From positions 1-55,947 of the forward strand of contig NZDU01000040.1 in assembly GCA_002688875.1 (NCBI GenBank): a DNA stretch of 55,947 bases, read 5' to 3'. The notes under the pieces are model-generated. The model made no database searches. It was given only the letters and a program-made list of their open reading frames with translations, and was not told where the DNA came from. The DNA comes from Candidatus Pacearchaeota archaeon (GTDB taxonomy: Archaea > Nanobdellota > Nanobdellia > Pacearchaeales > GW2011-AR1). The stretch's first letter is position 1, and every line of letters begins with the position of its first letter. Both the position numbers and the translations under genes were made by a program. This document shows, piece after piece, positions 8,579-27,858 of this stretch.

Positions 8579-8680
8579 TATTCATTGTTGAATTCTATGT
8601 TATTACAAGTACAAACTAACCCTGTTGGCATACCATTACTAGTATATACTGCTCCGCATTTTTTACATGTGAATGTCATT
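8579..8680 (-). CDS. Possible 33-aa zinc-ribbon-like peptide (MTFTCKKCGAVYTSNGMPTGLVCTCNNIEFNNE)
   Basis: Hand-translated ORF, too short for the track. It has CxxC...CxC spacing and a TTTAAATA box about 30 nt upstream on the minus strand. Confidence 0.3.
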
Positions 8681-8753
8681 GTAATTAAGTTTTGAAATTG
8701 AGGGTATTTAAACTTATTCATTTAAAAGTAGTAGAAATGAAAAATTAGAAAAG

Positions 8754-8761
8754 TTTAAAAG
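8754..8761 (+). promoter_or_regulatory. TATA box candidate for the aEF-2 gene
   Basis: GAAAAGTTTAAAAGG ends 23 nt before the ATG at 8784. The same GAAAAGTTTAAAA core occurs at 1786. Confidence 0.45.
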
Positions 8762-8783
8762 GCGATTTTTTTTTGGGTAAATA

Positions 8784-10949: not shown

Positions 10950-11086
10950 AACCTTCTTTGGAAAAGAAGCTTCACCAAGAAAGAAAAGTTTCATCAAAAA
11001 TTGTTACTACCCCCCTATAATAACCGAAATCTTTATAAACACATAATTTACCAAACTGTTAAGTTAAAGGAGGAAATACACGAAAA

Positions 11087-12370
11087 ATGGCGAAAGAAAA
11101 ACCACATATAAATTTAGTATTTATTGGTCATGTAGATCATGGTAAAAGTACATTAGTAGGAAGACTATTATTTGATTCTGGTAATATTCCCGAAGCGGAA
11201 ATGAGAAAATTAAAAGATAAAGCTCAAGAATTAGGAAAAGCAGGTTTTGAATTTGCTTTTGTAATGGATAATCTAAAAGAAGAAAGAGAAAGAGGAGTTA
11301 CAATTGATTTATCACATCAAAAATTTGTAAGTGATAAATATGAGTTTACAATAATTGATGCTCCTGGACACAAGGACTTTATTAAAAATATGATAACTGG
11401 GACAAGTCAAGCAGATGCTGCTATTTTAGTTGTAGCTGCTACAGATGGTGTAATGGAGCAAACTAAAGAACATCTATTTTTATGTAAAACATTAGGTGTT
11501 AAACAATTAATAGTAGCTATCAATAAGATGGATGCTGTTAAATACGATCAAGCTAAATTTGATGCAACTAAAAAAGCTATGGGAGAATTAATGACTAAAA
11601 TTGGTTTCAATCCTGAAGAAATTCCATTTTTAGCAACTTCTGGATGGGAAGGCGATAATGTTGCTAAGAAATCCGAAAATATGAGTTGGTATGAAGGTAA
11701 AACTCTATTAGAACAAATGAATGAGTTAACAGAACCTGAAAAACCAACTGAATTACCTTTAAGACTTCCCTTACAAGATGTTTATAACATCACCGGGATT
11801 GGTGTAGTACCGGTTGGAAGAATTGAAACCGGTGTTATGAAAGTAGGCGATAAGGTTATTGTTGTACCTGGAAGAGAAGGTAAAGGTGTAGAAGGGGAAG
11901 TTAAAACTATTGAAATGCATCACGAGCAAGTAAATGAAGCTGAACCTGGAGATAATATTGGATTTAATGTAAGGGGTATTGGTAAAAAAGATATTGCAAG
12001 AGGAGATGTTTTAGGTCATGTAGACAACCCTCCAACTGTAGTTAAAGAATTTACAGCTCAAATTGTGGTGTTGAATCATCCAACTGTATTGACTGCTGGA
12101 TATACTCCGGTATTCCATATACATACAGCACAAGTAGCATGTAACTTTGCAGAATTAATTGAACAAATTGATCCTGCAAGTGGCGAAGTCAAAAAAGAAA
12201 AGCCAGATATGTTAAAGAATGGAGATGCTGGAAAAGTTAAAATCGTTCCAACTAAACCGGTTGTAATTGAGAAAAAGGCGGATATTCCACATATGGCAAG
12301 CTTTGCTGTTAGGGATGCAGGTAATACTGTTGCTGCAGGTGTATGTATTGATTTGGTAAAGAAAGAATAG
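11087..12370 (+). CDS. tuf: Translation elongation factor aEF-1 alpha
   Basis: 427 aa. [17 protein letters not shown] and NKMD motifs. Confidence 0.97.
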
Positions 12371-12477
12371 AAACTTTCTTAAGAAGAAATATTCACGAAA
12401 GAAAAAAAATTACTTTTTTATTTTAATTTTTTCTTCAAAACTAAACTTTTATAAACCCCTAATTTTCTTTTTAAAAT

Positions 12478-12786
12478 ATGCCAAAAGCAAGAATAAGTTT
12501 AGCAAGTGCAGATATTGATCAATTAAATGAGATATGCGGAGCTATCAACGATATAGCTGGAAAAACCAAAGTAAAAATCGCGGGTCCTATTACCTTGCCT
12601 ACGAAGAAATTAAAATTAACTACTAGAAAAAGCCCGGATGGAGAAGGTAAAGCTTCTTGGGAAAGATATGAAATGAGAGTGCATAAGAGGCTTATTGATT
12701 TAGGTGTGGATGAAAGGGCTTTGAGGCTGGTTATGAGAGTGCCTATTCCTGAAAGTGTGAATGTTGAGATTGAGATGCTTGACTAG
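12478..12786 (+). CDS. rps10: Ribosomal protein uS10
   Basis: 102 aa. Sits in the conserved position after tuf and has an RLIDL motif. Confidence 0.93.
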   Translation: MPKARISLASADIDQLNEICGAINDIAGKTKVKIAGPITLPTKKLKLTTRKSPDGEGKASWERYEMRVHKRLIDLGVDERALRLVMRVPIPESVNVEIEMLD

Positions 12787-12839
12787 CTCGTATTGCACAA
12801 TATAGTAAACTTTATATATTTTTAGTCCTTGTTGTTTGT

Positions 12840-13523
12840 ATGGATATATCCGAGAAAAATAGGAATAATATTATATCTAGATGGAATAAAATACACGAAG
12901 TAGATAAAGAGTATATTCGAAAAAATAGTAATAAATTTCTTCATTTGAAATCCAGAATTTGCGGTTTTATTGCTGGAGATGGAAATATCCTGGTTGATAA
13001 TGGCTCTACTTGTAGACATAATACGGTAAGATTCTTTCCGGATAATCTTTCTTTAGTTAAATCTTATGGAGAAGCAATTTTGAAAGTGTATAATAAAATA
13101 CCCAAGATTGTCGAGAAGGAAAATTATTTTTACATGACTTTAGACTCCAAACCCGTAGTTTTGGATTTGTTAAGTTATTGTGAGTTTGGGAAGATGGAAT
13201 GGACTATTCCTGATTTTGTTTACGAATCTGAAGAGAATAAGATAGAATGGTTAAAGTCTTTTTTTGATTGTGAAGCCTATGTAAATGGTAAGTCTATTGT
13301 TGTTAAATCTGTAAATGGGAAAGGTTTGTTGAAAGTTAAGGAATTAGTTGAAAGTTTTGGAATTGAGACTAAGATATACTCCTATAATCCTAAGAATAAA
13401 AAATGGAACATAAATTATATGTTGTACATTCTAAGAAAAGAAAGTAGGAGGAAATATCGAGATTTAATTGGTTTTAATCATTCCACAAAGCTTAAAAAAC
13501 TCAATATCGTTTTACAATCTTAA
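12840..13523 (+). CDS. Free-standing double-motif LAGLIDADG homing endonuclease-like protein
   Basis: Two LAGLIDADG-type motifs: ICGFIAGDGNI and LKSFFDCEAYV. A TATA-like CTTTATATAT lies about 22 nt upstream. The stop codon (13521-13523) directly abuts tRNA position 1. Confidence 0.75.
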   Translation: MDISEKNRNNIISRWNKIHEVDKEYIRKNSNKFLHLKSRICGFIAGDGNILVDNGSTCRHNTVRFFPDNLSLVKSYGEAILKVYNKIPKIVEKENYFYMTLDSKPVVLDLLSYCEFGKMEWTIPDFVYESEENKIEWLKSFFDCEAYVNGKSIVVKSVNGKGLLKVKELVESFGIETKIYSYNPKNKKWNINYMLYILRKESRRKYRDLIGFNHSTKLKKLNIVLQS

Positions 13524-13673
13524 GCCGGGATCGCATAACCTGGTATTGCACAAACTTTTTGGGTTATAATCTGAAAAAGTGTAGGCCTGGAATCTTGCTT
13601 GAATAAAGTGGGATCAAGGAATACCAGCGAGCTTGACCCTCTGGGTGTCTGGGTTCAAATCCCAGTCCCGGCG
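13524..13673 (+). tRNA. tRNA-Ser-like gene with ~65 nt of intervening sequence (candidate anticodon UGA at 13600-13602)
   Basis: Acceptor GCCGGGA/TCCCGGC with discriminator G. T-arm CTGGG-TTCAAAT-CCCAG. D-arm GCA-TAACCTGGTAT-TGC. Candidate anticodon arm TCTTG-CTTGAA..T-CAAGG. The 150-nt length implies one to three introns, and the exact splice sites are unresolved. Confidence 0.7.
13661..13673. repeat. attL core (CCCAGTCCCGGCG) inside the tRNA-Ser 3' end
   Basis: Exact 13-nt match to 25793-25805. An ATG follows both copies after one mismatched base. Confidence 0.7.
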
Positions 13674-13747
13674 AATGATACTTTTGTGATGTATCCGAAT
13701 TCTTTAAGATGTTTGGATTACTTAGAAGTAGCTGGAGGTGAAGATTC

Positions 13748-15004
13748 TTGAAGATCGATCCACACAAGCATAAAGAGAAATACCAAAACTGGAAGAAGAA
13801 AGGTGTTGTTGAAGGAGTTTCAAAATTCAACTCAGACATTTTGATAGAGTATTTGACTGATATGGAGAATGGGTTGAATGTAACCAGGAGAGGGGTAATT
13901 GGGTATGCTCGCTTGAACAATCTCAGACAGAGAATGAGATTTATCGCAAGGCATTTGGAGGAGCTTTATGGCAAGGGCAGGATAATTGATGTTATAGAAA
14001 AAGAAATTGTCGCCTTCTTTAAGGCGATGAGAGATGGGAAAATCCTAACCAGGGAAGGGAAGAACTACACTTCAATTCCTGATTATGTGAATGTGTTCAA
14101 GGCCTTCTGGCATTGGTATCAGCGAGTTGAGAATGAAAAAGGAAATTTGGTGAAGGACATCACCAGATACATTGACACGAGTCCGGTGAAGGAGTCTGAG
14201 TTCGTTTATTTCACCATTGAAGACGTCAAAAAGATAGCTGAACGAGCGAAGTATGAATACAGAGTGTTGATGTGGTTTTTGTTTGACTCTGGGATTAGAG
14301 CGCCTACGGAACTGATGAATGTTAAGGTGTCTGATCTGGCCCTATTGGAAGGCTCAGATATCTATCAATTGAACATCAGAGATGAAATCAGTAAGACTTT
14401 TGGGAGGAAAATAAAACTGATGCTCTGTTCCCATCTGCTGAGGGATTACATCCAGGATAAAGGACTTGGGGATGAGGATTATTTGTTTCCCATTGTTCCA
14501 AGAGTAGTGAGTCAATACCTCAAGAGATTGGTTGTGAGAACTTTGGGAGATAAAAAAACCAAGGGTGGGCAATTCTTGAGAGAGATATCAATGTATGACT
14601 TCAGACATTCTTCAGCTTGTTACTGGTTGCTGAGATATAAGAGTGAGTCTGGATTGAAATACAGGTTTGGCTGGAAAAAAGAGGCTATGGTTCATTACTA
14701 CACCAAATTACTTGGAATGAGGGATACTATTGCTGAAGATGATTTGATGATTGATAGTGAGGCAAAGACAAAATTAGAAAAGGAATTGGGACAGGAGAGG
14801 AAGAATAAGAGCTTGTTGGAAGAAGAGCTTCAATCTCAGAGGGAGGAAATGACTGCAATCAAAGAACAGCTTGAGCGAAATAAGGCAGGGAATTTATTCA
14901 TCTTGAAACTGTTGAAAAGTCTCCAGAAAAGAAAGAAAATTCAGGATGTGATAGAGGTTATCAAAGAGGAAGATTTGGTTGAGGAATTGGAGATGATCGG
15001 ATAG
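13748..15004 (+). CDS. Tyrosine recombinase / phage-type integrase
   Basis: 418 aa. Motifs GIRAPTEL, YDFRHSSA and MVHYYTK (R..H-x-x-R..Y pattern). TTG start preceded by GGAGGTGA. C-terminal coiled-coil tail. Confidence 0.85.
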   Translation: MKIDPHKHKEKYQNWKKKGVVEGVSKFNSDILIEYLTDMENGLNVTRRGVIGYARLNNLRQRMRFIARHLEELYGKGRIIDVIEKEIVAFFKAMRDGKILTREGKNYTSIPDYVNVFKAFWHWYQRVENEKGNLVKDITRYIDTSPVKESEFVYFTIEDVKKIAERAKYEYRVLMWFLFDSGIRAPTELMNVKVSDLALLEGSDIYQLNIRDEISKTFGRKIKLMLCSHLLRDYIQDKGLGDEDYLFPIVPRVVSQYLKRLVVRTLGDKKTKGGQFLREISMYDFRHSSACYWLLRYKSESGLKYRFGWKKEAMVHYYTKLLGMRDTIAEDDLMIDSEAKTKLEKELGQERKNKSLLEEELQSQREEMTAIKEQLERNKAGNLFILKLLKSLQKRKKIQDVIEVIKEEDLVEELEMIG

Positions 15005-15112
15005 TAGGGAGCCTTGGGGTTGGATTTCTTGTCTCGAAAGATTCTAAATCTGCTTGACATTGGGTAAATTTGGGTACATGTTAACAGGTGAGTCGGAAAG
15101 TGGACCCCATTG

Positions 15113-15946
15113 TCAAGACCAATTTGAGGCGAATTTAAGGTGGATTGCGTTTTTGTGCTCAATAGGCATCTCCTTTTTGAGGTAGAGGTCAGCGGGAACC
15201 CGATCATTGAGTCCCTGATGAGGGCGTTCGTCATTATAGAAGCCGAAGTATTCGGTCAGCCCCAGGTAGAGCTGGGGGACCCTGTCGTAGGACTTGAGGT
15301 AGAGTTCTTCGTATTTGACCGAGCGCCACAAGCGTTCGATGAACACGTTGTCCAGTGCTCTGCCCCGTCCGTCCATGCTGATGCGAATGCCTTCTTCCTC
15401 CAGCCTTTTTGTGAATCGGGGGGAAGTGAACTGAGACCCCTGGTCGGAGTTGAAGATCTCGGGTGTGCCGCGGGTGAGGGCTTCACCCAGAGCCTCCAGA
15501 CAGAAATCCACCTCCAGGGTGTTGGACAACCGCCAGGACAGCACATACCGACTATACCAATCCATCACGGCGACCAAATACATAAAGCCTTGTCGCATCG
15601 GGACATAGGTAATATCTGTGCTCCAGACCTGGTTAGGCCGGTCGATGGACAGGCCCCGTAGCAGGTAAGGATAGATGCGGTGTTGGGGATGGGACCGACT
15701 GGTGTTGGGACGCGGATAGATCGCTTCCAACCCCATCTTGTGCATCAACCGTTGCACGCGTTTGCGGTTGATATCGTATCCCAGATTTCTCAACCACGTC
15801 GTCATTCGTCTGGACCCATAGAAGGGTCGCTTTGTATATTGCCCATCGAGAAGACGCATCAAGAACAGGTTCTCCGAGGTTTCGCCTGCTGGCTGGTAGT
15901 AGAAACTGGACCGAGAAAGGCCAAGTAACTGGCATTGTCTGCGCAA
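15113..15946 (-). CDS. IS3 transposase OrfB (DDE/rve integrase core), expressed as OrfAB by -1 frameshift
   Basis: Contains WSTDITY, MDWYSRYVLSW, FNSDQGSQFTS and ERLWRSVKYEE motifs. The orfB frame stays open upstream to the A-run (KKKLPDKVEERRRLIDPGDPDLSLRRQCQ). Confidence 0.9.
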   Translation of the reverse strand: MRRQCQLLGLSRSSFYYQPAGETSENLFLMRLLDGQYTKRPFYGSRRMTTWLRNLGYDINRKRVQRLMHKMGLEAIYPRPNTSRSHPQHRIYPYLLRGLSIDRPNQVWSTDITYVPMRQGFMYLVAVMDWYSRYVLSWRLSNTLEVDFCLEALGEALTRGTPEIFNSDQGSQFTSPRFTKRLEEEGIRISMDGRGRALDNVFIERLWRSVKYEELYLKSYDRVPQLYLGLTEYFGFYNDERPHQGLNDRVPADLYLKKEMPIEHKNAIHLKFASNWS

Positions 15947-15995
15947 GCTGAGGTCCGGATCCCCCGGATCGATCAGCCTGCGCCTTTCCTCAACT

Positions 15996-16274
15996 TTATC
16001 CGGCAGCTTTTTTTTTCACAAAGTCCAGTTCGACCTTCAACCGACCAATTTGTTCGTAGAGTCGCGCTTTGAGTGCCTCATCATTTTGATGATCTTTGGC
16101 GCGGGAACTGGAGAAGAGGTCCACTGCCCCAACCTGGAGCTGCTTTTTCCACTGGCTGATCTGGTTGGGGTGAACCTCATACTCGGCTGCCAACTCATTG
16201 ATGGTTTTCAAACCCTTTAATGCTTCTATGGCGACACGGGATTTGAATTGGGCACTTCGGTGATTTCGCTTCAT
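15996..16274 (-). CDS. IS3 transposase OrfA (HTH)
   Basis: 92 aa. INELAAEYEVHPNQISQWKK helix-turn-helix plus a leucine-zipper-like tail. Ends just after the A9 run. Confidence 0.9.
   Translation of the reverse strand: MKRNHRSAQFKSRVAIEALKGLKTINELAAEYEVHPNQISQWKKQLQVGAVDLFSSSRAKDHQNDEALKARLYEQIGRLKVELDFVKKKAAG
16008..16016 (-). promoter_or_regulatory. Programmed -1 frameshift slippery run (A9 followed by G on the minus strand)
   Basis: T9 on the plus strand at 16008-16016, in the orfA/orfB overlap. This is the classical IS3 A-AAA-AAG type site. Confidence 0.7.
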
Positions 16275-16623
16275 GAATCCACTCCTTATTACTACTTAGT
16301 ATCTAACTTAATGAGTGGTCCAGTTTCTGGGGTCCAATATATCGCTGCTTACTTATCTGCTTCCTACCGGGAGGAAGTTGCCTATAGATTTACCATTCAT
16401 TAGTCCCAGACATCTCTTTTGAAGATATGTGCCTGGGATGTTTTTTTATTCGATAAAGGCAAACCTGCTGAAAAGCTGGGACGCAAAGGAGCGGGTCCTC
16501 GTCTGACCGACCACCGGGTGTGTGGGAGATGCGGGATGGAGAGGCCGGCCAGCTCCAAGACAGCCGCACTGCCGAAGATAATGGTGGTGCGGTTTTTCTT
16601 ACTTGTACAGAACAATCGTTCGA

Positions 16624-18075
16624 TCAGAATTTTTCAGGATCTATTCCTAAATCTTCACCGCTGTATTTTATTTTTCTCTTGACCTCGTTGAATTCTCGAG
16701 CCGTTGCATCATTACCCCTTTTTAGATCTCCGTAGGTTATAACACGCTTGTCATTAGGCTTTAAAATGAATTCCTTGTATGCTATCAGTCTATAATCTGG
16801 AACAATCTCTTTACAAGCAAATCTGTAATTTATCGTTCTGTCTTCCTCAAAGGTTTCTATTTCTCCTGGCTCTATGCCCAGAACTGATGATTTGAATTTA
16901 GCTTTTGCAGGTACAACAATCTTATTGTAGCCAACATTTCTCATATCCTCAATTTCATATTGCATTCTAATTACAGTATCCCACTTGTCTCTATAGATAT
17001 TCGAAAAGAAACAACCATCAACGCCGCAGATCATATTTCTGAATTCTAAAGAACATCGTATTTGAGTAGATGGATCTTTGGTTACAATAACACGGGTTGA
17101 AGGGTAAATCACCGTGGCTTGTGAAGACTTATCATTGAGCGGCATTATCTTGTTCGTTCCAAAAGGGTGGTCCATACAGAAATCATCCTCACAGTTATCC
17201 CCAGCGTCCCAAATCCCTTCCTTATTAAAATGACCAATGCGATTATAAAGGAAGTAAATCCGTTTTTTCGCCTCCTCAGGAGTCATAAATACTAAATCTG
17301 GACAATCGGTTGTATCAAAGCAAAATGTAGTATCAACACTGTACCACAATCCATCAATATGATACATAGTAACGATGTGATTTATGCTTACCAGTCTCGG
17401 AATAGAAGGAATTTCTGCAGCTCTCAACATAGCAGATGTAATAGTTGCAGCATCTAAACACACTCCTTCGTCACTATCAAAGATTACAGAAAAATCCTTG
17501 TCCTTATTGGCAGGAGATCTACAATCCTCATATAACTCAGGGCACTGATAATTCTTCGACCTAAACACCCAATTAGCAATAGCTTTGACCTTTTCAAAGT
17601 CGCTATCTTTCCCTTCAGTTAATTCCTCAACTTTCTTTACAAGAGGAGGATAGTTCTGCCAGTCATCCCACACTCTTTCAACACCAGGCAATCTATTGCC
17701 TAAGTAATCATCAAGATCATCTGACGCTACCAAGTTCATTAGTATTGGTTTACAAACACGTTGCTTTGTTAAGGGAGAAATTTCATCGTCAAGGATGAAT
17801 CCTTTTGGACATATGCCCTCTTCTAAAGCCCCGCATTCTGCTCCATAATAACTATCAGCAAATAGAAAAAAATCTTTGATTTCTACTTCATTATCATTGT
17901 CCAGATCAAATTCACTGTTTAAAATACCTTGGTTTTGAAATGCTATAAATGCCTTAGAGAAAAGTAAAAAATCATCTAAATTCACTTTGCAGTCATTATT
18001 GAAATCTGCTTGAAGGGCCGAAGTATCTTGACTAAAGACTATTAACACTAGCATTAAGAGAAATTTCTGTCTCAT
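16624..18075 (-). CDS. Secreted dockerin-like + transglutaminase-like (Cys-His-Asp) domain protein
   Basis: Signal peptide. Two Ca-loop repeats, DFNNDCKVNLDDF and DLDNDNEVEIKDF. Transglutaminase-core-like EGVCLDAATITSAMLRAAEIPSIPR...NHIVTMYHIDGLWYSVDTT. Confidence 0.7.
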   Translation of the reverse strand: MRQKFLLMLVLIVFSQDTSALQADFNNDCKVNLDDFLLFSKAFIAFQNQGILNSEFDLDNDNEVEIKDFFLFADSYYGAECGALEEGICPKGFILDDEISPLTKQRVCKPILMNLVASDDLDDYLGNRLPGVERVWDDWQNYPPLVKKVEELTEGKDSDFEKVKAIANWVFRSKNYQCPELYEDCRSPANKDKDFSVIFDSDEGVCLDAATITSAMLRAAEIPSIPRLVSINHIVTMYHIDGLWYSVDTTFCFDTTDCPDLVFMTPEEAKKRIYFLYNRIGHFNKEGIWDAGDNCEDDFCMDHPFGTNKIMPLNDKSSQATVIYPSTRVIVTKDPSTQIRCSLEFRNMICGVDGCFFSNIYRDKWDTVIRMQYEIEDMRNVGYNKIVVPAKAKFKSSVLGIEPGEIETFEEDRTINYRFACKEIVPDYRLIAYKEFILKPNDKRVITYGDLKRGNDATAREFNEVKRKIKYSGEDLGIDPEKF

Positions 18076-18142
18076 TCAATCTTTGAGAAGTGAACGTAAT
18101 ATTTAAATATTTAGATTACAATTGAGAAAAGAGTGATTTTAA

Positions 18143-18802
18143 ATGCCAGGAAGAATTGAGAAATTTATGAATGCACTTTCTCACAAGAGGGTAATTCTAG
18201 TGATGTTGGTGCTTATTATGATTAGCCCCAATTCATATGCTGATATCATCCCTTCTGGCCACCATTCCATAGAACACTGTTTTGAGATAGCAAATACAAA
18301 TGAATACCCAAATCATACCTTCTTGGCCAAAACTCTTGTGGTTACTATTGCAGATTCTAGTTGGATAAGTGAAGTCATCAAAGGTAACGACTGTATCAAG
18401 TTCCATAGAGGTGTCAAGAAGCTACAGATCTGCGCTACAAGCAGGGAATCAAATACTAAGGGTATGGCAGCGGAAGAATCTAGTAATCCTATCTGTTCAA
18501 ATATTCTTGATATGAAATTCGCCGGAATCGTTCACAAAAGTGACCCTACACAGAAGGTGATTGATTCTTTTAGTATTGAGGACACGAATGATGATCGCTT
18601 ATCAATAAAGGAAACTAAAGTTACCTATATATATAAGGATGGCAGCGTCGAGGAATTACCCTATACAACTCAAGCTGAAAGACCGGTAGCTACTAGAGCA
18701 TATTCAAGTCTTTCAGGAAAATTTTGGTTTATCTTACCTTTAAGTGCCTTGGTGGCAATCTTCCTGATTGTTATGTGGAAGCTTCTGAGACGGGAGAGAT
18801 GA
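18143..18802 (+). CDS. Secreted protein with C-terminal TM anchor
   Basis: 219 aa with an N-terminal hydrophobic segment and a C-terminal FWFILPLSALVAIFLIVMW followed by basic residues. Confidence 0.5.
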   Translation: MPGRIEKFMNALSHKRVILVMLVLIMISPNSYADIIPSGHHSIEHCFEIANTNEYPNHTFLAKTLVVTIADSSWISEVIKGNDCIKFHRGVKKLQICATSRESNTKGMAAEESSNPICSNILDMKFAGIVHKSDPTQKVIDSFSIEDTNDDRLSIKETKVTYIYKDGSVEELPYTTQAERPVATRAYSSLSGKFWFILPLSALVAIFLIVMWKLLRRER

Positions 18803-19116
18803 TAGGTTTATCCATAGAAGTGACCGCATTGCTTCTGACAATTCTGGTTGAATTTGTCATTATTTACCTAGTGCTAAAAGAAGACAGGTGGACTGTAATT
18901 TTGTTATATGTCACACTTATAAATTGTGTCTCTCTCCCTCTTGCTTTTAGGTTATATAATACTCAGTTACTGGGATTTTATGGAACCGAACTCTTCGTCT
19001 TTATTCTAGAAGTCTTCCTACTTGGAATGCTTGTTCAAAGAGAATATGGCCGTGTAGTTTTATCTTTGTCACTTGCCAATTTTTCAACTGCTGTCTTGAG
19101 TGTGATGTTCCTGTAA
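18799..19116 (+). CDS. Small polytopic membrane protein
   Basis: Start at ATG 18799, forming an ATGA overlap with the upstream stop. About 3-4 hydrophobic helices. Confidence 0.45.
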   Translation: MIGLSIEVTALLLTILVEFVIIYLVLKEDRWTVILLYVTLINCVSLPLAFRLYNTQLLGFYGTELFVFILEVFLLGMLVQREYGRVVLSLSLANFSTAVLSVMFL

Positions 19117-19147
19117 ACACTTCTACCCTTGCCCTTGGGGGTTTAAG

Positions 19148-21946
19148 ATGATTTCTATGCAACGTCTTTCAGTGCTCTTCACTGTGTTAATTTTGACAAC
19201 GGCTGCTACAACACCTGCTCAAAGACCAACAGTTTCAGATGACCTAGCTGAGAGGGCTGCACAAATATTTGCTGAACAACGCTGGGGATCGTCTACTTTG
19301 ATTTGGAGAAACCCACTATATGGGCTCAATGGTAAAATTCAAGCATACTCGTATTTAGTGTACTTGGATAATGCTGTGCCAAAAGAAATTGAGAAAGCTA
19401 TTGAGAGAGAGGACATTGATTATCTGTTATCTACATCGGAAAATCTGTTAGGCACTGTCGTTATATCTGCTACCAGAGATGAATTTCCTTTTCTTGAACG
19501 CTACGAGGGACCTCCGATCGAAATTGTTCAGAAGAACAAGGGCAAAGAAATTTATAAGAGGACTTGGGGGGAAACTGGAAATCCCCGATTTTACCGCTTA
19601 GGTCCGGGATTAATTATTGGAGATTATTCTGAAGACAAAGTGTTGCCTTCTAATGGCACTATTACTAAGGGAGTGTTCCTATCTACTCAGAAACCAATCC
19701 TTTTTGACCCAACGCCAGAATTAGCAACGAAACCAGCTATGGATCCAGTGACCAAGTTCCAATCTGAACAAATCTGGCGGAAGCTAGAACAGACCAGAAG
19801 TTCCAAGATCACGATGAAATTTCAGAGAAGTGAACAGTTTATCAGCGGTGTCCCCTATTATTTACAAGACGACTTTGATGGTCCTAATTCCACTATCTGT
19901 GTCCAGACAGCTACCGCCCAAGTGCTTGGCTATTGGGACGACAATGGATATGGTCTCCTTGTCAGAGGGGGAAATTCCAATTATACTTCTGGTGTTCGAC
20001 AGATGATTAATGATCTGAAGACTACGATGGGATGGTCCAGAGATGGTGCAACAAGCTTCGATGTATGGGATCTTTTTAATTTCCAAGGAATTACGAGATT
20101 TACAAATGATTCAGAATTTGGGAGGAATTACAATTTTCAAGCTCATATAGGTAGACTTAGCACATTCAGTGAAGCGTTTGTCTGGACTGATGTTGTATCT
20201 GAAATAGATGCTGGAAGACCCATAATTTATATGATCGGATTAGGCGGCAATCTTACACATATTGGTGATCATACCATTGAGAATCGTTCCCTTGCTACTT
20301 TTGGTCACGCGATGACAGCTGTTGGCTACGAATCTTGGGACATTGGTATTGGTACTGACTTACATATTGTCAAAGTACATTATAATCATCTCATTGGAGG
20401 ACAAAGACGTCCATTAGAGATTATAAATAACACCTCTACCCAAAAAGTAACTATCAAAGTCCAACCTGGAAGACCACCGCAGAGTATTGATTTGGTAGCT
20501 ACTTCCATTGATGGACCTGGGGAGGGGACACAAGGAGGATCAATATCTGTTTATCGGATCATCTCAAACGGTGGGGCGACAAACGCTGGTCGATTTAAAA
20601 TTAAGTATTATTTCTCATCCAATAGAACCATCTCAGACAGTGATTTTCTGCTCGGAGAAGAGGAAGTTACTAGCCTTAATGGTGGTTTTGTGTCTGGTCG
20701 CAATGTAAATATAACTGTCCCTGCGAGAGTAAGTACTGGTTCGTATTATCTAGGTATGATTGTAGATGCTGACAATGCCATCTTTGAATCTAATGAGGGT
20801 AATAATATCGAGCGTGACTCGGAAATAATTGTTATACGTTCGGGAGGTAGACCAAACTTAGTAGCTACTTCCATTGATGGTCCGAGTTCAGGTTCACAAG
20901 GGGGATCAATATCTGTTCGCAGGAGGGTTTCCAATGATGGGAATGCAGCCAGTGGAACGTTCAAAATTGGATATTATCTGTCAACTAACAGAACAATTTC
21001 AACCGGAGATAATTTACTTGGGAAGGAAGAAATCACACTCAATGCTGGTTCCAGTTCAGACATAATGGTTAGTATCAACATTCCAAATTCAATTAGCATA
21101 GGCACATTTTATTTAGGAATGATTGTAGACGTTGATGAAGATGTTACCGAATCTAATGAAGATAATAACATTGTTCGTGATTCAGGAACAATTAACATAG
21201 GCAGTGGAGGGGGTCTATCTGCTGATCGTTACGAAAATGACAACACTCGTTCTAGCGCAACACAAATTGCTACAGATGGTACATCTCAGACTCACACTGT
21301 TCACGTAAATAATGACAATGACTATGTTTATTTCGAGGCTCAATCTGGAGTTCAGTACACAATTGAGACAACAGGAAACATAGATACAGAATTGACAATT
21401 TACAACTCTAGTGGAACACAGCTCGCACATTATGATAACGATAGAGTGGCAGGTAACAATGAGCGAGAAACTTTCTCTCGAAGTGGATCAGGGAATCTTC
21501 GGACGTATGTAAAAATAAATGAACGTGGTCAGAACGATACTGGAACTTATACCATCTCTGTTACAAGTAGCGGAGGGGGTCTATCTGCTGATCGTTACGA
21601 AAATGACAACACTCGTTCTAGCGCAACACAGATTGCTACAGATGGTACATCTCAGACTCATACTATTCACACAAATAGTGACGAAGACTATGTTTATTTC
21701 GAGGCTCAATCTGGAGTTCAGTACACAATTGAGACAACAGGAAACATAGATACAGAATTGACAATTTACAACTCTAGTGGAAGACAGCTTTCGAATTACG
21801 ACAATGACAGAGGATCTGAAAATAATGAGCGAGAAACTTTCTCTCGAAGTGGATCAGGGAATCTTCGAACTTACATCAGAGTAATTGAACACCGCCAGGA
21901 CAATACTGGTAGCTATACTATTTTTGTTACAAGGGAGGGTGGATAA
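19148..21946 (+). CDS. Secreted streptopain-like (peptidase C10-like) cysteine protease with 2x CARDB and 2x PPC domains
   Basis: Signal peptide. Pro-region pattern GTVVISATRDEFPFLERYEG. Catalytic-Cys context CVQTATAQVLGYW (tgt 19898-19900) and His context FGHAMTAVGYE. CARDB-like repeats (LVATSIDGP..GGSISV...ESNE.NN). PPC-like repeats (DRYENDNTRSSATQI...DYVYFEA). Confidence 0.75.
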   Translation: MISMQRLSVLFTVLILTTAATTPAQRPTVSDDLAERAAQIFAEQRWGSSTLIWRNPLYGLNGKIQAYSYLVYLDNAVPKEIEKAIEREDIDYLLSTSENLLGTVVISATRDEFPFLERYEGPPIEIVQKNKGKEIYKRTWGETGNPRFYRLGPGLIIGDYSEDKVLPSNGTITKGVFLSTQKPILFDPTPELATKPAMDPVTKFQSEQIWRKLEQTRSSKITMKFQRSEQFISGVPYYLQDDFDGPNSTICVQTATAQVLGYWDDNGYGLLVRGGNSNYTSGVRQMINDLKTTMGWSRDGATSFDVWDLFNFQGITRFTNDSEFGRNYNFQAHIGRLSTFSEAFVWTDVVSEIDAGRPIIYMIGLGGNLTHIGDHTIENRSLATFGHAMTAVGYESWDIGIGTDLHIVKVHYNHLIGGQRRPLEIINNTSTQKVTIKVQPGRPPQSIDLVATSIDGPGEGTQGGSISVYRIISNGGATNAGRFKIKYYFSSNRTISDSDFLLGEEEVTSLNGGFVSGRNVNITVPARVSTGSYYLGMIVDADNAIFESNEGNNIERDSEIIVIRSGGRPNLVATSIDGPSSGSQGGSISVRRRVSNDGNAASGTFKIGYYLSTNRTISTGDNLLGKEEITLNAGSSSDIMVSINIPNSISIGTFYLGMIVDVDEDVTESNEDNNIVRDSGTINIGSGGGLSADRYENDNTRSSATQIATDGTSQTHTVHVNNDNDYVYFEAQSGVQYTIETTGNIDTELTIYNSSGTQLAHYDNDRVAGNNERETFSRSGSGNLRTYVKINERGQNDTGTYTISVTSSGGGLSADRYENDNTRSSATQIATDGTSQTHTIHTNSDEDYVYFEAQSGVQYTIETTGNIDTELTIYNSSGRQLSNYDNDRGSENNERETFSRSGSGNLRTYIRVIEHRQDNTGSYTIFVTREGG
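20495..21937 (+). repeat. Four in-frame 366-bp modules (2 diverged CARDB, 2 near-identical PPC)
   Basis: GTAGCTACTTCCATTGATGG occurs at 20495 and 20861. GGAGGGGGTCTATCTGCTGATCG occurs at 21206 and 21572. Long identical runs link the last two modules. Confidence 0.85.
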
Positions 21947-21979
21947 AACAATTAAAGAACCAGAGCAGAGGAGATAAAA

Positions 21980-22360
21980 ATGTTACAGATATACACAATT
22001 CAGATTTCAGTGGCCCATCAATTGAGACTGACACAGGACCCCCGCTATCTTGATACCACAGTCAAATCAGGCGACAAGATATTTGCACCGACGTGGAAGA
22101 TGGTGATGGGCGTAAAAGGAGGCAGGACTACAGAGGAAGAATACACGCAGCAATACTATGATATGATGCGTGCGAGTTATAGGCAGAATACAGAAGGGTG
22201 GAATGATATTCTAGCCCTGGATGAAATCATTCTGGCCTGCTACTGCAAACCCGATTCGTTCTGCCATCGTTATTTGCTGAAGGATATGTTAGTGAAATGT
22301 GGAGCGGAGTATTCGGGGGAAGTCAGAAGGGTAGAAGATTTAGCTTCAAGAAACTTTTGA
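21980..22360 (+). CDS. Small DUF488-like protein (FAPTW...ACYCKPDSFCHR motif)
   Basis: 126 aa, assigned by pattern-level resemblance only. AGGAG lies 7 nt upstream. Confidence 0.4.
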   Translation: MLQIYTIQISVAHQLRLTQDPRYLDTTVKSGDKIFAPTWKMVMGVKGGRTTEEEYTQQYYDMMRASYRQNTEGWNDILALDEIILACYCKPDSFCHRYLLKDMLVKCGAEYSGEVRRVEDLASRNF

Positions 22361-22442
22361 AGGATGATTGTGAGAGGGTGTTGCGGAAAGTAAACGCAGA
22401 ACTATAATCTGCTATGGAGGGAAAAACAAGTTGCTTTTTATT

Positions 22443-22886
22443 TTAAGATTTATTCATCAACCGACTGAGATCTTTTTTTAAGGAATCTTCAAAGTGGTCT
22501 TTATCATTTACAACAGTGAATTCAACAGGTAGATTTAAGTTTTGTATTTTCTCTTGAGGTGTTTCAGCTGTAACATAAATTAGACATTCCTTTCCTGAGG
22601 ACACAGCCTCTTCAATCCTGGGCATTGCCCAATTATCTTCAATGCTTCTTCCTTGATGTTCTGCAATGAGTAGAACCAACACTTTTGATTGGTGATAAGA
22701 ATCTAAAATTTCTCTGTTAAGGATACTTTTTATAGCACGTAATCCCACACCTACATAGAAATCAAGGGATAATCCGAGAGATTCAACCAGCCTATCCGCG
22801 AAACCAAAACGGACCTCATTATACCCTATGGATTGCTTAATGTCGATATTGGTGCAAAAAAAAATCCTCTCCCCTTTTTGAAGCAT
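22443..22886 (-). CDS. Hypothetical protein (147 aa)
   Basis: Start moved to MLQKGERIFF (cat 22884-22886), which has AGGAGG 7 nt upstream. There is a weak Rossmann-like pattern (VLVLLIAEHQG...IEEAVSSGKECLIYV). Confidence 0.5.
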   Translation of the reverse strand: MLQKGERIFFCTNIDIKQSIGYNEVRFGFADRLVESLGLSLDFYVGVGLRAIKSILNREILDSYHQSKVLVLLIAEHQGRSIEDNWAMPRIEEAVSSGKECLIYVTAETPQEKIQNLNLPVEFTVVNDKDHFEDSLKKDLSRLMNKS

Positions 22887-23097
22887 TTGTTTTCCTCCTA
22901 AAGGAGAGAGTTTGATTATTACACAGAAATTTTGCAATAAGGATTATTGAGCATTAATTGCCTATCTACGAACGGCTCACATTAATCTGAAATCTGTGAT
23001 TTATCGCGAAAAATGTGCTTTTAACGATTTTTCGGATGATGGGTGTCGATAATTTATAGCAAATTTCTCTCATTTTGAGCTTACTGCAAAATCTCTG

Positions 23098-24447
23098 TTA
23101 CAGTGCTTGAGCAAGTTCTTCTCTGTGCATAATCTCTTCAATATGATCAATACGTTTCTGAATGAGAGGATAAGTGCCGATGTCTCTTCTATGACGCACA
23201 GGTCCGATGACTTTGTTAACAGCATCTTCAGCTATTTGCTCTGCTGCTTCAAGATCATCACCAATCCCTACAAATGCAACCGCACGAGACCCCGTCATGT
23301 AGAGTTCATCTTGTTCCTTGTAAACCGCGCCATAGAACATTCTCAATTCATCACTTGGACTTGGAACTTCACTCATATTGATGCGGGCACCCCTTATAGG
23401 ATCATCTGGATATCCTTCAGGCACAACATATTTGCACACTGTAGCTTTTCTCTCAAATTCAATTGGAGTCCTATCAAGTGTGCCGTTAAGAATGGCCTCA
23501 CATACATCCATAAAATCTGTCTTCAGCAGCGGCAGCACATTCATAACTTCTGGATCTCCGAACCTTGCATTGTATTCTATGAGTCTTAGACCTTTTTTTG
23601 TGAACATAAATCCGCCATATAAAACCCCTTTATACTCACTACCAACTTCCTCTCGAAGTGCGCGAGCAACTGCCGAATTTATTTCACTAGCTTCTTGGAT
23701 ATGCTCTTTAGAAATGAAGGGCAGATCGTGTTCTTTACAAGAATAAGATCCCATACCTCCAGTGTTAGGACCTGTATCTCCATCGTATGCTCGCTTATGG
23801 TCCTGAGCAACAACCATATCCACTACGTGCTGACCATCACATAGAGATTGTAAGCTGAATTCTTCTCCTTCAAGTTTTTCCTCAATCACAACAGCTTGAT
23901 GTTTTTCGTGGAAAAGTTCCCTACTATATTGAAGGGCTTCATCAATCGAATGGAGGTGCTCTCCAAATACCTTTACTCCCTTTCCTCCTGTGAGACCATC
24001 AGGTTTAACAACGAACTCACCTACAGTGTGAAGATATGATTCAATGCCTTCAATGTCTCGAAAAATTCGGTAGTCTGGATTCCCAGGGATATCATATTTG
24101 GAAAGAAGTTCACGTGTGAAAAGTTTACTTGATTCGAGTCGTGCAAGAGATTTTCCAGGTCCTATACAAGGAATACCGAACTCCTCACTCAATACATCCA
24201 CAGCCCCAACAGCGAGTGGTTCCTCAGGTCCAATTACCGCGAAGTCTGGCTTCACTTTGTTAGCAACTTCCCTAATATCCTCTAGCCGATCTGTATAACC
24301 AGTTTTCAACTCTTCTACTTTCTCACGGAGACCTGGATTTTCAACCTCTGAAAGAGCGTATAACTGTGGAGACCCATGGCTTCTTCTTAAAGCATCGGCA
24401 ATGCAATCAATCCTAGCAGACTTTCCAATTAGAAGAACCTTATACAT
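23098..24447 (-). CDS. purD: Phosphoribosylamine-glycine ligase (ATP-grasp)
   Basis: 449 aa, full length. N-terminal KVLLIGKSARIDCIA, ATP-grasp core VVKPDGLTGGKGV, and C-terminal GSRAVAFVG. Confidence 0.88.
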   Translation of the reverse strand: MYKVLLIGKSARIDCIADALRRSHGSPQLYALSEVENPGLREKVEELKTGYTDRLEDIREVANKVKPDFAVIGPEEPLAVGAVDVLSEEFGIPCIGPGKSLARLESSKLFTRELLSKYDIPGNPDYRIFRDIEGIESYLHTVGEFVVKPDGLTGGKGVKVFGEHLHSIDEALQYSRELFHEKHQAVVIEEKLEGEEFSLQSLCDGQHVVDMVVAQDHKRAYDGDTGPNTGGMGSYSCKEHDLPFISKEHIQEASEINSAVARALREEVGSEYKGVLYGGFMFTKKGLRLIEYNARFGDPEVMNVLPLLKTDFMDVCEAILNGTLDRTPIEFERKATVCKYVVPEGYPDDPIRGARINMSEVPSPSDELRMFYGAVYKEQDELYMTGSRAVAFVGIGDDLEAAEQIAEDAVNKVIGPVRHRRDIGTYPLIQKRIDHIEEIMHREELAQAL

Positions 24448-24545
24448 TATTGCCCTCCCCGAGAATTTAAAACGATAGTCATAACAAATTCTTTACATTA
24501 AGATATTAAATATCAATAACTTATATATAAATCTTGCGATTTGTA

Positions 24546-24971
24546 TTATGTAAGACCCCGCCGAGATTTTTTTAGAAGTTGAAACCCCTCTTGAAACCGA
24601 TTAATCCTTTTGCTGGTAAGACCATGTTGTCTGAACATTGGAAAATTACGATCTTGTCCCGGTTCCAACTGTGTCGCAAAGGCTTTAGTCCGAGCAAGAG
24701 TATATTTCCAACGGTCGGTCACTAGATCAACCAGTGCTGTGTAACAAACTGAAGGGATTCCTGTGTCTTCTACTTGCAGCACGGCAAAAGAAGGGTCGTC
24801 GATTCTTTCCCCATTCTCTCTATAGACATATCTCAGTTCAAATCCATAAAGTGATGCCCAAATCGCCTCGGATTCAGTACCGAGTTTTGACTCTGGCATA
24901 GATTGGAATTCTATTCCGGCAATATTGATTGCTTGGCGAGGAGGCTGAATGTATGGTAATACGATAAGCAT
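24546..24971 (-). CDS. Hypothetical protein (141 aa)
   Basis: Track ORF with no recognisable motif. Confidence 0.4.
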   Translation of the reverse strand: MLIVLPYIQPPRQAINIAGIEFQSMPESKLGTESEAIWASLYGFELRYVYRENGERIDDPSFAVLQVEDTGIPSVCYTALVDLVTDRWKYTLARTKAFATQLEPGQDRNFPMFRQHGLTSKRINRFQEGFQLLKKSRRGLT

Positions 24972-25174
24972 TTTGTAACCTTACCATAGAATTGCGGTGA
25001 AAAATAACCCTATTCTATATTGTATTTTGGAATCACACGGCGTGGCCACTCGTCTTTTGGGGTAGGGCAGACATGGCGCACACCTACGAGCTTATCCAAC
25101 CTTGTTTGGAATATACTTTTTTTATAAGGATAATGTCAATCCTCTACTTCAAGTAATTCTTTTTATTTGGCATA

Positions 25175-25348
25175 TTATTTAAACTTATTTTTATGTACGT
25201 CCTTGCTTACATAATTAGAGGAACTGTGCTTCACCTTTTCAGAGATGACTCCAGGTTTCTGCTCTTCAGCACCGGTTTTTGAACCCTCTTCCAATTCACT
25301 CAGAAATTTTCGCAGAAGTGTAACCCATTCTGGAACCTCATTCTTCAT
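25175..25348 (-). CDS. Possible 57-aa ORF overlapping the AbrB-like gene by 11 nt
   Basis: Hand translation gives MKNEVPEWVTLLRKFLSELEEGSKTGAEEQKPGVISEKVKHSSSNYVSKDVHKNKFK. The overlap sequence is ATGAAGAATGA. Confidence 0.25.
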   Translation of the reverse strand: MKNEVPEWVTLLRKFLSELEEGSKTGAEEQKPGVISEKVKHSSSNYVSKDVHKNKFK

Positions 25349-25571
25349 CTTGCTTCACCTCATCTTCTTTCACAATTTCCTTCGGCTTTCCATCCAGGTA
25401 GGAAACCATTAAGGGTCTTCCATTTTCATCCTTTGCAGTGTAAGAATAAATAGGCATCCCTCTCTCCAAACCGAGTCCTTTCACAACAGGTTTCAAGATA
25501 AGGATCTTGGAAGTTCCTGCCTTCATCTGTAGCAAGGATTTCCAGCCGTGAAATTGAAAGGTGATTCTCAT
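25338..25571 (-). CDS. Small AbrB/SpoVT-like DNA-binding protein (tentative)
   Basis: 77 aa. The pattern SKILILKPVVKGLGLERGMPIYSYTAKDENGRPLMVSYL resembles a swapped-hairpin barrel. Acidic tail. Confidence 0.35.
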   Translation of the reverse strand: MRITFQFHGWKSLLQMKAGTSKILILKPVVKGLGLERGMPIYSYTAKDENGRPLMVSYLDGKPKEIVKEDEVKQDEE

Positions 25572-25792
25572 TTTCTTATTAAGGAGATGCTGAAGTTCTT
25601 AACACTTTTCGGCACTTTTGAGATGCCGTAAGGAAGAGTAGTGTTTCGCCACTTGAATGTGCAGGTGAGGATAGAGGAGAAACATAACTTGATGACTCAG
25701 TAGAAAGATATAAATAGGAGTAGTGTCTTACTTATTTTAATGAGGCATTCCATTATCAATGCCAATCGAAGATATCACACAAAGGTATTCTG

Positions 25793-25805
25793 CCCAGTCC
25801 CGGCG
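25793..25805. repeat. attR core (CCCAGTCCCGGCG)
   Basis: Exact copy of the tRNA-Ser 3' end. AT-rich backbone sequence resumes immediately after it. Confidence 0.7.
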
Positions 25806-27419: not shown

Positions 27420-27810
27420 AGTAGGTAACAGACCGACTAATCGGAAACTTTTCAAACCGATTCCATTAGTGATTCACAATAAAAACTAAGATCATCGTGG
27501 AACATGAAAAGTTGCTGAGGAAAGTCCACACACAAAAAAAGGCTATTCCTGAAAGGGAGTTTCAGAAATGAAAGGCAACCACGCAGAAACGACACGGCTT
27601 ATTGATGTGATGATGTTCACGAAATCTCCAGTGATGGGGACGAGAACTAACTGAATATATCAATAAGAAACGATGAAACGGTGAGTCCTGGCTTGTGCAA
27701 GTCTGTAAGACGCATAGTTGAATGGTCGGAACCTTTTTTAGGAAAAAAGCTTCACCAGAAAATGAAGCAAATCTAAAAGGTTAACAGAATGTGGCTTACT
27801 GTTGCCTACT
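27420..27810 (+). ncRNA. rnpB: RNase P RNA
   Basis: CR-I GAGGAAAGTCC at 27517-27527. CR-V ACAGAATGTGGCTTAC at 27784-27799. P1 pairing of AGTAGGTAACAG (27420-27431) with CTGTTGCCTACT (27799-27810). No ORF is present. Confidence 0.8.
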
Positions 27811-27858
27811 TCCATTTTTAAAAAAGTGGAGTCAAAACAAAGAAAGGAAAAATAGAAA

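Follow-up and report, generated by a model that had tools for sequence, protein, structure and literature searches.

Integrases of the pNOB8 type carry the signature R..YxxR..Y and their gene remains intact, whereas integrases of the SSV1 type carry R..KxxR..Y and their gene is split on integration (PMC8371274). Cryptic integrated elements (CIEs) of Thaumarchaeota are defined by their integrase, are mostly smaller than 20 kb and rich in auxiliary genes, and many of them have no identifiable replication protein (PMC6563490). DPANN archaea are not mentioned in a 2021 review of archaeal tyrosine recombinases. Here we describe a 12,132-bp unit (13674-25805) inserted at the 3' end of tRNA-Ser(GGA) in a 55,947-bp stretch of DNA from a Candidatus Pacearchaeota archaeon (contig NZDU01000040.1; the whole stretch is called the window hereafter). 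It is very likely that this unit is a site-specifically integrated and probably still mobile element of marine Pacearchaeota, a DPANN lineage, and that it uses a pNOB8-type integrase. Members of the DPANN group, which are ultra-small, have tiny genomes and live in dependence on hosts. The ways in which they acquire genes are poorly known, and their mobile DNA has been little studied.

The element resembles several described systems in part. As in pNOB8 of Sulfolobus, the integrase gene is intact beside the att site, the signature is R..YxxR..Y, and the 3' end of the tRNA is duplicated and the tRNA survives (PMC8371274). It differs from pNOB8 elements in its host, which is a marine mesophilic DPANN archaeon and not a member of Sulfolobales, in having no recognised conjugation or replication genes, and in its 13-bp identity block. 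With SSV-type systems it shares the tyrosine recombinase superfamily, a tRNA target, which is frequent there too, and the occurrence on archaeal mobile genetic elements (MGEs). Unlike in those systems, where attP lies within int and the signature is R..KxxR..Y, the gene in the window is intact and the core lies outside it, 75 nt upstream. Like the CIEs of Thaumarchaeota, the element combines an integrase and direct repeats with accessory genes and has no recognised viral, conjugative or casposon signature genes (PMC6563490). It differs from them in phylum and integrase family, and its cargo consists mostly of secreted and membrane proteins and purD. Bacterial tRNA islands and integrative mobilizable elements with P4- or lambda-like integrases also show a tRNA 3' target, repeats, a tRNA-proximal integrase, foreign composition, cargo and nested insertion sequences (ISs), but the host and the integrase family are archaeal here, and neither a relaxase nor an origin of transfer was recognised in the window element. 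In its mechanism the element does not depart from known tRNA-targeting tyrosine-integrase elements. What makes it valuable is the clean set of attB, attL and attR with an attP analogue, the little-studied host and the integrase family; this kind of element has already been described.

Insertion polymorphism at tRNA-Ser(GGA)

The 13-mer CCCAGTCCCGGCG, which comprises the 3' T-stem and the acceptor end of the tRNA including G73, is present exactly twice in the window. One copy is the attL core (13661-13673, +) and the other, identical copy is the attR core (25793-25805, +), with host sequence from 25806 on. Dinucleotide-preserving shuffles gave no match to CCCAGTCCCGGCG, even with one mismatch allowed. 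The identity between the repeats stretches to 17 bp with one mismatch (core, A/T, then ATG). attB reads core+TATG and attL reads core+AATG, so that strand exchange must take place within the 13-bp block.

Proteins encoded in the flanks were looked up in public assemblies to recover both states of the site. The empty site was found in six independent contigs (L004, L006, L007, L008, L009 and L015), of which L004 is 97 kb long and comes from run ERR594345. It has a single copy of the repeat and reads ...GGGTTCAAATCCCAGTCCCGGCG|TATGTAATTC..., that is, window positions 1-13673 joined straight to 25806 onward. Its flanks are 99.8-100% identical to the window, and the difference between the empty and the occupied allele is therefore recent. 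Occupied junctions were found in TARA scaffolds (L001/L003), in L002, in a window-identical 137-kb contig from ERR594346 (L014/L005), in a JGI contig (L016) and in L011. Thus, the junctions recur across samples and across assemblers (MEGAHIT, TARA scaffolds, Logan and JGI). Among the occupied copies found, identity is 99.9% or more, and each has the same IS of the IS3 family. Logan contigs assembled from run ERR594346 alone include one with its end exactly at 13673 (L018) and one with its start exactly at 25793 (L010). This suggests that both alleles coexist in that sample and that these contig ends reflect a branch of the assembly graph at the core. A TARA scaffold of 12,226 bp starts at 13619 and, if it is colinear with the window, ends near 25844 (its last 840 bp were not retrieved). 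It would then span the element with about 40-55 bp of shared sequence at either end, as expected from a bubble in the assembly graph.

A scan of metagenomes with the 23-mer at the 3' end of the tRNA yielded 80 loci from many environments, none of which had an integrase downstream, and so no further occupants; it supplied orthologous tRNAs. A third allele is seen in L017 (TARA_SAMEA2620039 scaffold_37175, 1577-1745), where the same end of tRNA-Ser is followed neither by the element nor by the peroxiredoxin flank but by AT-rich sequence, of which 167 nt are available. It was considered as another integrase element and rejected, as these 167 nt are AT-rich and encode an open reading frame (ORF) with a signal peptide. 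This allele indicates that the 3' flank of the tRNA varies between strains.

The element also stands out in composition. Its GC content is 0.411, or 0.396 after removal of the IS and a riboswitch-like region, and that of each flank is 0.325 (1-kb windows, standard deviation 0.023). In a sliding window, GC steps from about 0.32 to about 0.40 at 13.5-14 kb and falls back at 25.5-26 kb, with an inner peak of 0.50-0.53 at 15-16.5 kb. In tetranucleotide usage the element lies at a distance of 0.32-0.36 from the backbone, versus a mean of 0.14 and a maximum of 0.18 within the backbone. The backbone is archaeal: Rfam finds an RNase P RNA of archaeal type at 27488-27811 and tRNAs with introns. Its gene order is EF-2, EF-1alpha, S10, a free-standing LAGLIDADG ORF, the tRNA, the element and peroxiredoxin.

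The target gene, which is not part of the element, is tRNA-Ser(GGA) at 13524-13673 (+; Rfam tRNA match of 34.5 bits). ARAGORN did not call it in default mode. Its exons (13524-13553, 13585-13592 and 13630-13673) were defined by orthologues in L161, L108 and L168. Intron 1 (13554-13584, 31 nt) is at the non-canonical position 29/30, and intron 2 (13593-13629, 37 nt) is at the canonical position 37/38. The orthologues in L161 and L108, which have the same 3' end, show an insertion at ...GCACAA|A...GTAG|GCCTGGAAAGCTTG, and the orthologue in L168, which has no intron, reads CAGGC-CTGGAAA-GCCTG. The intron at 29/30 is common to the window gene and the orthologues in L161 and L108; the canonical intron is particular to the lineage of the window. 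The spliced tRNA (82 nt) forms a perfect Ser(gga) cloverleaf in ARAGORN, and its D-arm (TCGCATA..GGTATTGCA) and its 13-nt variable arm (CCC...GGG) match those of DPANN tRNA-Ser genes. ARAGORN -i proposed Lys(ttt). We rejected this assignment, because a single canonical intron gives the anticodon UUU, which is a mismatch with the Ser-type body, and the orthologues show two introns. Enumeration of single deletions followed by a rerun of ARAGORN was too permissive to settle the introns. Because a simple-script search of the tRNA gene found no clean bulge-helix-bulge motifs, the splice points are placed by comparison and may be off by a base or two. An 8-bp complementarity was seen between the D-loop (CTGGTATT) and intron 2 (AATACCAG).

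An earlier note on this DNA, made from its letters alone, had placed the element in tRNA-Ser between exact 13-bp repeats, had reported a break in composition at both junctions, and had proposed a search for the empty site in relatives. All of this was confirmed. The target is a tRNA-Ser by its Rfam call, its Ser-type arms, its orthologue-defined exons and its cloverleaf, the empty site exists, and sliding-window GC and the tetranucleotide profile both show the break. The note had also held that a repeat common elsewhere in the genome would speak against the element; in the window, CCCAGTCCCGGCG is unique to the two att positions.

An intact integrase of pNOB8-type signature

The element encodes a full-length tyrosine integrase of 418 aa (13748-15004, +) with a TTG start preceded by GGAGGTGA. 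This start lies 75 nt past the tRNA and the attL core, and it is placed there because the N-terminal sequence MKIDP is kept in all homologues. Residues R184, K216, Y283-D-F-R286, W309 and Y318 are invariant in an alignment of 26 sequences. The integrase thus combines the R..YxxR..Y signature with an unsplit gene and an attP outside the gene, the two features of the pNOB8 type.

Sequence profiles recognise the protein weakly to well. The match to Pfam PF00589 (Phage_integrase) is marginal, at 27.6 bits against a cut-off of 27.1, and the PHROG_1 integrase family is matched with E=2e-19. An AlphaFold2 model was obtained with a pLDDT of 78.5, in which residues 293-344 are of low confidence. A Foldseek search of this model against the PDB gave 48 matches with E<=1e-3, and the top 50 matches listed are all tyrosine recombinases (probability 1.0, 270-310 aligned columns), including Cre, archaeal XerA, lambda Int, XerH, IntI and Tn1549 Int. 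The model therefore predicts a two-domain tyrosine-recombinase fold, with a core-binding and a catalytic domain, as is expected of such an enzyme. A tblastn search with the integrase (E<=1e-3) found no match in 72,556 plasmid records of PLSDB or in 50,697 phage and archaeal-virus records of INPHARED. Relatives of the integrase are also absent from the 2.9 million viral contigs of IMG/VR, and a sequence search of the PDB with the profile of the integrase family gave no match.

The predicted attP and p77

Joining the two ends of the element would reconstitute an attP that reads ...GGTATTCTG-CCCAGTCCCGGCG-AATGATAC... In this predicted site, the core is flanked symmetrically, 4 nt away on each side, by an imperfect inverted repeat. 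One arm (ATACTTTTGTGAT, 13678-13690, +) lies 4 nt from the attL core on the element side, and it pairs with the second arm (ATCACACAAAGGTAT, 25774-25788, +), 4 nt ahead of the attR core. An inverted repeat flanking the core is the classic layout of core-type recombinase binding sites. The two arms are thus candidate core-type sites to which the integrase may bind.

A small conserved protein, p77, is encoded at the attR end (25338-25571, -) and has 17 homologues at 60-76% identity. Among the cargo and backbone genes of the element, p77 alone has a relative among 80 related loci. It is a candidate regulator or directionality factor. Its structure model has a pLDDT of 54, which is too low to support a fold search; an AbrB-like fold is our guess.

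In a relative, the core lies in an attP-like setting. The 9.5-kb contig L020 (GC 0.43) encodes an integrase 55% identical to that of the window. Its order is a p77 homologue on the minus strand (70% identical), then GCCCAGTCCCGGCG without a tRNA body, then the integrase, and the core is flanked by an inverted-repeat pair of its own (CAAAATCCTA and TAGGGTTTTG). To judge by its gene order and repeats, this is apparently the arrangement expected for the attP of an excised circle.

In L020 (5482-7321) and in L222 (1285-3093), the p77 homologue is followed by two conserved genes, for proteins of about 113-116 aa and about 294-335 aa, which are 48% and 51% identical, respectively, between the two contigs. 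A third contig shows the same order of p77 and two genes, by gene sizes alone. Neither protein has a Pfam match, and in PHROGs only the 335-aa protein has a match, a weak one (E=1.3e-6) to a family without assigned function. The two genes may be a backbone or replication module of the element family that the window element has lost. They are not present in the window element, and p141, one of its proteins, is not homologous to them. With these two genes missing, the window element would keep only the p77-attP-int core of the backbone.

The integrase family in DPANN archaea

A word-index search found more than 2,200 homologues of the integrase, and those with names belong to Woesearchaeota, Pacearchaeota and Nanoarchaeota. 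In an exhaustive search of 1.84 billion representatives at 50% identity, 582 clusters matched with E<=1e-3 and 133 with E<=1e-30. These small numbers indicate that the family is compact and isolated. Among GTDB species genomes, 237 loci have a relative, and nearly all are metagenome-assembled genomes of DPANN archaea (Woese-, Pace- and Nanoarchaeota).

Linkage to tRNA genes is a feature of the family. Of the 77 loci whose upstream sequence suffices, 36 have a tRNA in the same orientation 71-236 nt ahead of the integrase start. The gap has a median of 85 nt and falls within 71-94 nt in 27 of the 36 loci; the 75 nt of the window fit this range. The tRNAs upstream of family integrases are those for Glu, Asp, Ser, Gly, Arg, Tyr, Gln, Ala and Leu. 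In four relatives, repeats of 12-14 nt of the tRNA acceptor end bound segments of 3.3-11.1 kb. The design common to members is fixed: the core, 12-14 bp long, coincides with the 3' end of a tRNA, and the integrase follows some 85 nt inside attL. The position of p77 across attP from the integrase is seen in the subgroup of the window. Seven sampled loci without an ARAGORN call had no Rfam tRNA upstream either.

The cargo of the relatives is heterogeneous. One relative (L054) carries a rolling-circle Rep_1 next to attR, together with restriction-modification and HEPN genes (ResIII, HEPN and a DNA methylase). Others encode QueC-like and NUDIX proteins (L083), winged helix-turn-helix regulators (L086), a 1,943-aa Rhs/TcdB/SpvB-like (Rhs/Tc-toxin-like) protein (L094), or NB-ARC and TPR proteins (L020). 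This indicates that the family is a general vehicle and not an element dedicated to surface functions. The surface-protein cargo of the window is shared with none of 80 relatives. Surface proteins are a trait of the copy in the window, not of the integrase family.

One contig of the family (L092, JAHJSH010000025.1, 5,031 bp) has a terminal direct repeat of 136 bp and may represent a circle of 4.9 kb. We did not rely on it as evidence for a free circle, because its integrase gene is broken into two ORFs and a further ORF resembles a reverse transcriptase (YVDD motif).

Cargo genes of the element

Several cargo genes encode secreted or membrane proteins. The first is a secreted protein of 483 aa with a transglutaminase core of cysteine-protease fold (16624-18075, -; Pfam Transglut_core and Dockerin_1), which begins with a signal peptide and a dockerin-like module. 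Over its first 81 aa it shares 41% identity with the N-terminus of a 696-aa HExxH (metalloprotease-like) protein encoded on the host chromosome (53209-55299, -), and the module common to both consists of the N-terminal signal peptide and a dockerin-like double repeat. Given this identity with a chromosomal protein, the transglutaminase-like protein uses a secretion and anchoring module that belongs to the lineage itself, and the two proteins may be displayed on the surface by a common system. The next gene encodes p219 (18143-18802, +; 219 aa), which has an N-terminal signal or transmembrane segment and a C-terminal transmembrane anchor and no match in Pfam, PHROGs or NCBIfam. It is followed by p130, a small multi-pass membrane protein without a family match (18724-19116, +); the ORF has 130 aa, and public calls have 105-113 aa starting from about 18799. 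The largest cargo protein is a secreted one of 932 aa (19148-21946, +), with a signal peptide, a C39-like peptidase domain, two CARDB domains and two PPC domains (Pfam). Within its gene, a stretch of about 365 bp is duplicated in tandem with 88-90% identity (21203-21933, blastn), and this duplication corresponds to the repeated PPC region.

The remaining genes differ in kind. A DUF488-N3a family protein of 126 aa (21980-22360, +; Pfam PF22751) matches phrog_2450, of unknown function, with E=8e-36. purD, for phosphoribosylamine-glycine ligase (23098-24447, -; 449 aa), is identified by TIGR00877 (425 bits, cut-off 288) and by Pfam GARS_N/A/C. Its conserved downstream partner, p164 (22443-22937, -; called as 147 aa), has no Pfam or PDB match, and p141 (24546-24971, -) has none in Pfam, PHROGs or NCBIfam. 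The exact purD protein of the window is found in NCBI under 'Candidatus Pacearchaeota archaeon', and the next-best matches are at most 71% identical; those with names are bacterial (Rhizomicrobium and Desulfovibrio, about 60%). The closest purD relatives with context are two (65-69% identical), both on mobile-element-like contigs. The purD contigs L219 and L220 encode a D5_N primase-helicase and harbour an IS3 with 58% identity to that of the window, and L221 carries a resolvase and ParA/ParB. A p164 homologue (about 147-150 aa, 36% identical) directly follows purD in all three. By its gene order (22443-24447, -, in the window; 7001-8845 in L219; 2040-3857 in L220; 7001-9037 in L221), purD with p164 appears to be a recurrent two-gene cargo cassette on mobile elements.

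No viral, conjugative, replication, partition or virion genes were recognised among the ORFs of the element with Pfam, PHROGs and NCBIfam, within the sensitivity of these profiles. The element has no VirB4/HerA-type ATPase, coupling protein or mating-pore genes that we could find, and no PHROG structural match to capsid, portal, terminase or morphogenesis proteins.

Nested IS3 and an orphan riboswitch-like sequence

The nested IS of the IS3 family (15101-16336, -) is 1,236 bp long, has a GC content of 0.52, and matches Pfam HTH_Tnp_1, HTH_21, rve and rve_3. Its orfA (15996-16274, -) and orfB (15113-15946, -) are 49 nt apart and do not overlap. It is bounded by the terminal inverted repeats TGGACCCCA and TGGGGTCCA, whose outermost 9 bp are perfect, and its ends show no target-site duplication of the 3-4 bp typical of IS3 elements (AAG vs ATA). 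Identity of the transposase to IS3 copies on bacterial plasmids does not exceed 62%, and the IS3 region of the window has no matches to plasmid DNA beyond the transposase. IS3 elements are reportedly present in every archaeal phylum, with mixing across domains (PMC13343696). A nested IS3 is therefore unremarkable, and we do not take its presence as a sign of rarity.

A sequence resembling the aptamer of a cyclic di-GMP-I riboswitch lies 112 nt beyond the IS3 (16449-16577, +). It matches RF01051 with 53.4 bits against a gathering threshold of 35 (E=1e-7), and it falls below the threshold of the GGC variant model RF03167 (56.8 against 59 bits). The region has a GC content of 0.59-0.62. A terminator scan found a terminator-like hairpin with a T-run overlapping the aptamer (hairpin 16562-16594; region 16449-16600, +). 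The sequence is not the 5' leader of a gene, as no gene on the plus strand follows it and the 3' end of the convergent transglutaminase-like gene is at 16624. It is probably a non-functional, stranded fragment of bacterial DNA, to judge from this context. An ancestral unit of IS3, riboswitch and purD was considered and found unsupported: the riboswitch-like sequence was detected neither in the purD/IS3 relatives nor in L020. We know of no reports of cyclic di-GMP riboswitches in archaea.

Nature of the element and alternative explanations

In the mechanism that we propose, the integrase would recombine the 13-bp core of attP, flanked by its imperfect inverted repeat, with attB, the identical 13 bp that end the tRNA-Ser(GGA) gene. 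The tRNA would stay intact because the core is duplicated on insertion, and the integrase gene would remain unsplit, 75 nt inside attL. Excision by the reverse reaction would yield a circle of 12.1 kb, on which p77 and the integrase gene would be divergent across attP. The cargo would be accessory, with three or four secreted or membrane proteins, the DUF488 protein and the cassette of purD and its partner; the IS3 and the orphan bacterial-type riboswitch fragment would be later additions. Without recognisable replication, conjugation or virion genes, the element falls into the class of cryptic integrated elements.

The earlier note had also described an intact integrase 75 nt after the tRNA, integration of the pNOB8 type, and a cargo that is not virus-like and consists of a nested IS3, proteases, membrane proteins, purD and unknown genes. 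These points agree with what was found. The integrase has all catalytic residues and the conserved MKIDP start, the tRNA is regenerated, the gene is unsplit and bears the R..YxxR..Y signature, each of the listed cargo genes is present, PHROGs show no viral hallmark genes, and IMG/VR contains no relative of the integrase. The suggestion of the note that this may be an undescribed type of element that delivers surface functions was not supported, because the CIE class has been described (PMC6563490) and the cargo of the relatives is heterogeneous.

Several points weigh against an integrated, still mobile element of this kind. Roughly half of the integrase family is arranged differently and is not adjacent to a tRNA. 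Because no sequence similarity of the integrase to plasmid or virus integrases was detected, the label pNOB8-type denotes mode and signature only; it is no demonstration of kinship to pNOB8 Int, and any relationship is remote. p219, p130, p164, p141 and p77 have no relatives of known function and may hide a replication or virion module. The arrangement in L020 could equally come from a tandem double insertion. A 30-mer across the attP junction of the window had no match in IMG/VR, and no circular junction was found.

Four other explanations have to be considered. The unit could be a fixed, immobile island, and the polymorphism could reflect an old insertion sorted among strains or a deletion between the 13-bp repeats. 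The near identity of the occupied copies (at least 99.9%) with the same IS3 is consistent with a single insertion, and the absence of two backbone genes together with the gain of the IS3 and the orphan riboswitch suggests some decay. We nevertheless regard a fixed island as unlikely, since the integrase is full length with every catalytic residue, the att cores are identical, the flanks of the two alleles (99.8-100% identical) point to a recent difference, and both alleles seem to coexist in one sample. That foreign DNA was misjoined at a short shared k-mer during assembly might be suspected from the shortness of the 13-bp repeat, from a composition unlike that of the backbone, and from the bacterial look of the IS3 and the riboswitch. 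Such a chimera is effectively refuted: independent assemblies, built from different samples with different assemblers, reproduce both junctions, the integrase family is DPANN-specific, and the repeat cannot itself cause the join because it is shorter than assembly k-mers.

The two other explanations assign hidden functions to genes of the element. It is quite improbable that it is an integrative plasmid that replicates after excision with an initiator among ORFs such as p141 or p164. L054, with the same integrase family and att design, does have Rep_1 beside attR, and the two conserved genes after p77 in L020 and L222 could be a replication module; these two genes are absent from the window element, p141 is not their homologue, and no Rep, primase, helicase or partition gene was found in the element. 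p164 looks like cargo and not like backbone, because it travels with purD on unrelated MGE-like contigs. Neighbouring genes for a small hydrophobic protein and for proteins that are anchored or secreted recall pleolipovirus-like modules. This resemblance would fit a provirus of an archaeal virus not yet described, in which p219, the small membrane protein and the 932-aa protein would form a membrane-virion module as in pleomorphic or spindle-shaped archaeal viruses and the integrase would provide lysogeny. Archaeal virion proteins are often unrecognisable by sequence, p219, p130, p141 and p77 are without matches, and spindle-shaped viruses of nanohaloarchaea are reported to share tyrosine integrases (bioRxiv 10.1101/2025.02.15.638363). 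We consider a provirus very improbable. PHROG matches are limited to the integrase and the DUF488 family, with no morphogenesis ATPase, capsid or terminase found, and the integrase family is missing from IMG/VR and from the 50,697 phage and archaeal-virus records. In addition, the genes of the putative virion module are shared with none of the 80 relatives, and the N-terminal module of the transglutaminase-like protein is common to a chromosomal protein of the host.

An integrated, probably still mobile element, then, is the reading that we prefer, and it provides a clean integrative element at the population level in marine Pacearchaeota, with a set of attB, attL and attR, an empty site and an apparent attP analogue in a relative. 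The integrase family, abundant in DPANN archaea and isolated, could help to map the mobilome of this group systematically, and the defined pair of attB and attP together with the integrase could seed genetic tools. The cargo shows gene flow from bacteria to the mobile DNA of DPANN archaea, in the form of the IS3, the riboswitch fragment and the bacterial-like purD. More tentatively, and with considerable doubt on our part, the integrase may be the hallmark of an extensive mobilome, uncatalogued so far and restricted to Woese-, Pace- and Nanoarchaeota, that shuttles cargo among episymbionts. In favour of this reading are the compactness and isolation of the family, its absence from the plasmid, phage and IMG/VR records searched, the silence of the 2021 review on DPANN archaea, and the fixed design of its members. 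That cargo would include surface proteins, defence systems and modules derived from bacteria (the IS3, the cyclic di-GMP riboswitch fragment and the cassette of purD and its partner). If this were true, such elements would be a main route by which these archaea, episymbionts with reduced genomes, gain genes.

Other features of the window

The free-standing LAGLIDADG-domain ORF (227 aa, 12840-13523, +) lies between S10 and the tRNA, and its stop codon directly precedes the first base of the tRNA. Empty and occupied alleles alike contain this ORF, which is therefore outside the element. The sole call of ARAGORN in default mode in the window is a 'tRNA-Asn(att)' at 41390-41479, which is very AT-rich, is without Rfam support and is probably a false positive. 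A transposase-like ORF of 516 aa in the backbone (51072-52622, -) adjoins an intron-containing tRNA at 50266-50366.

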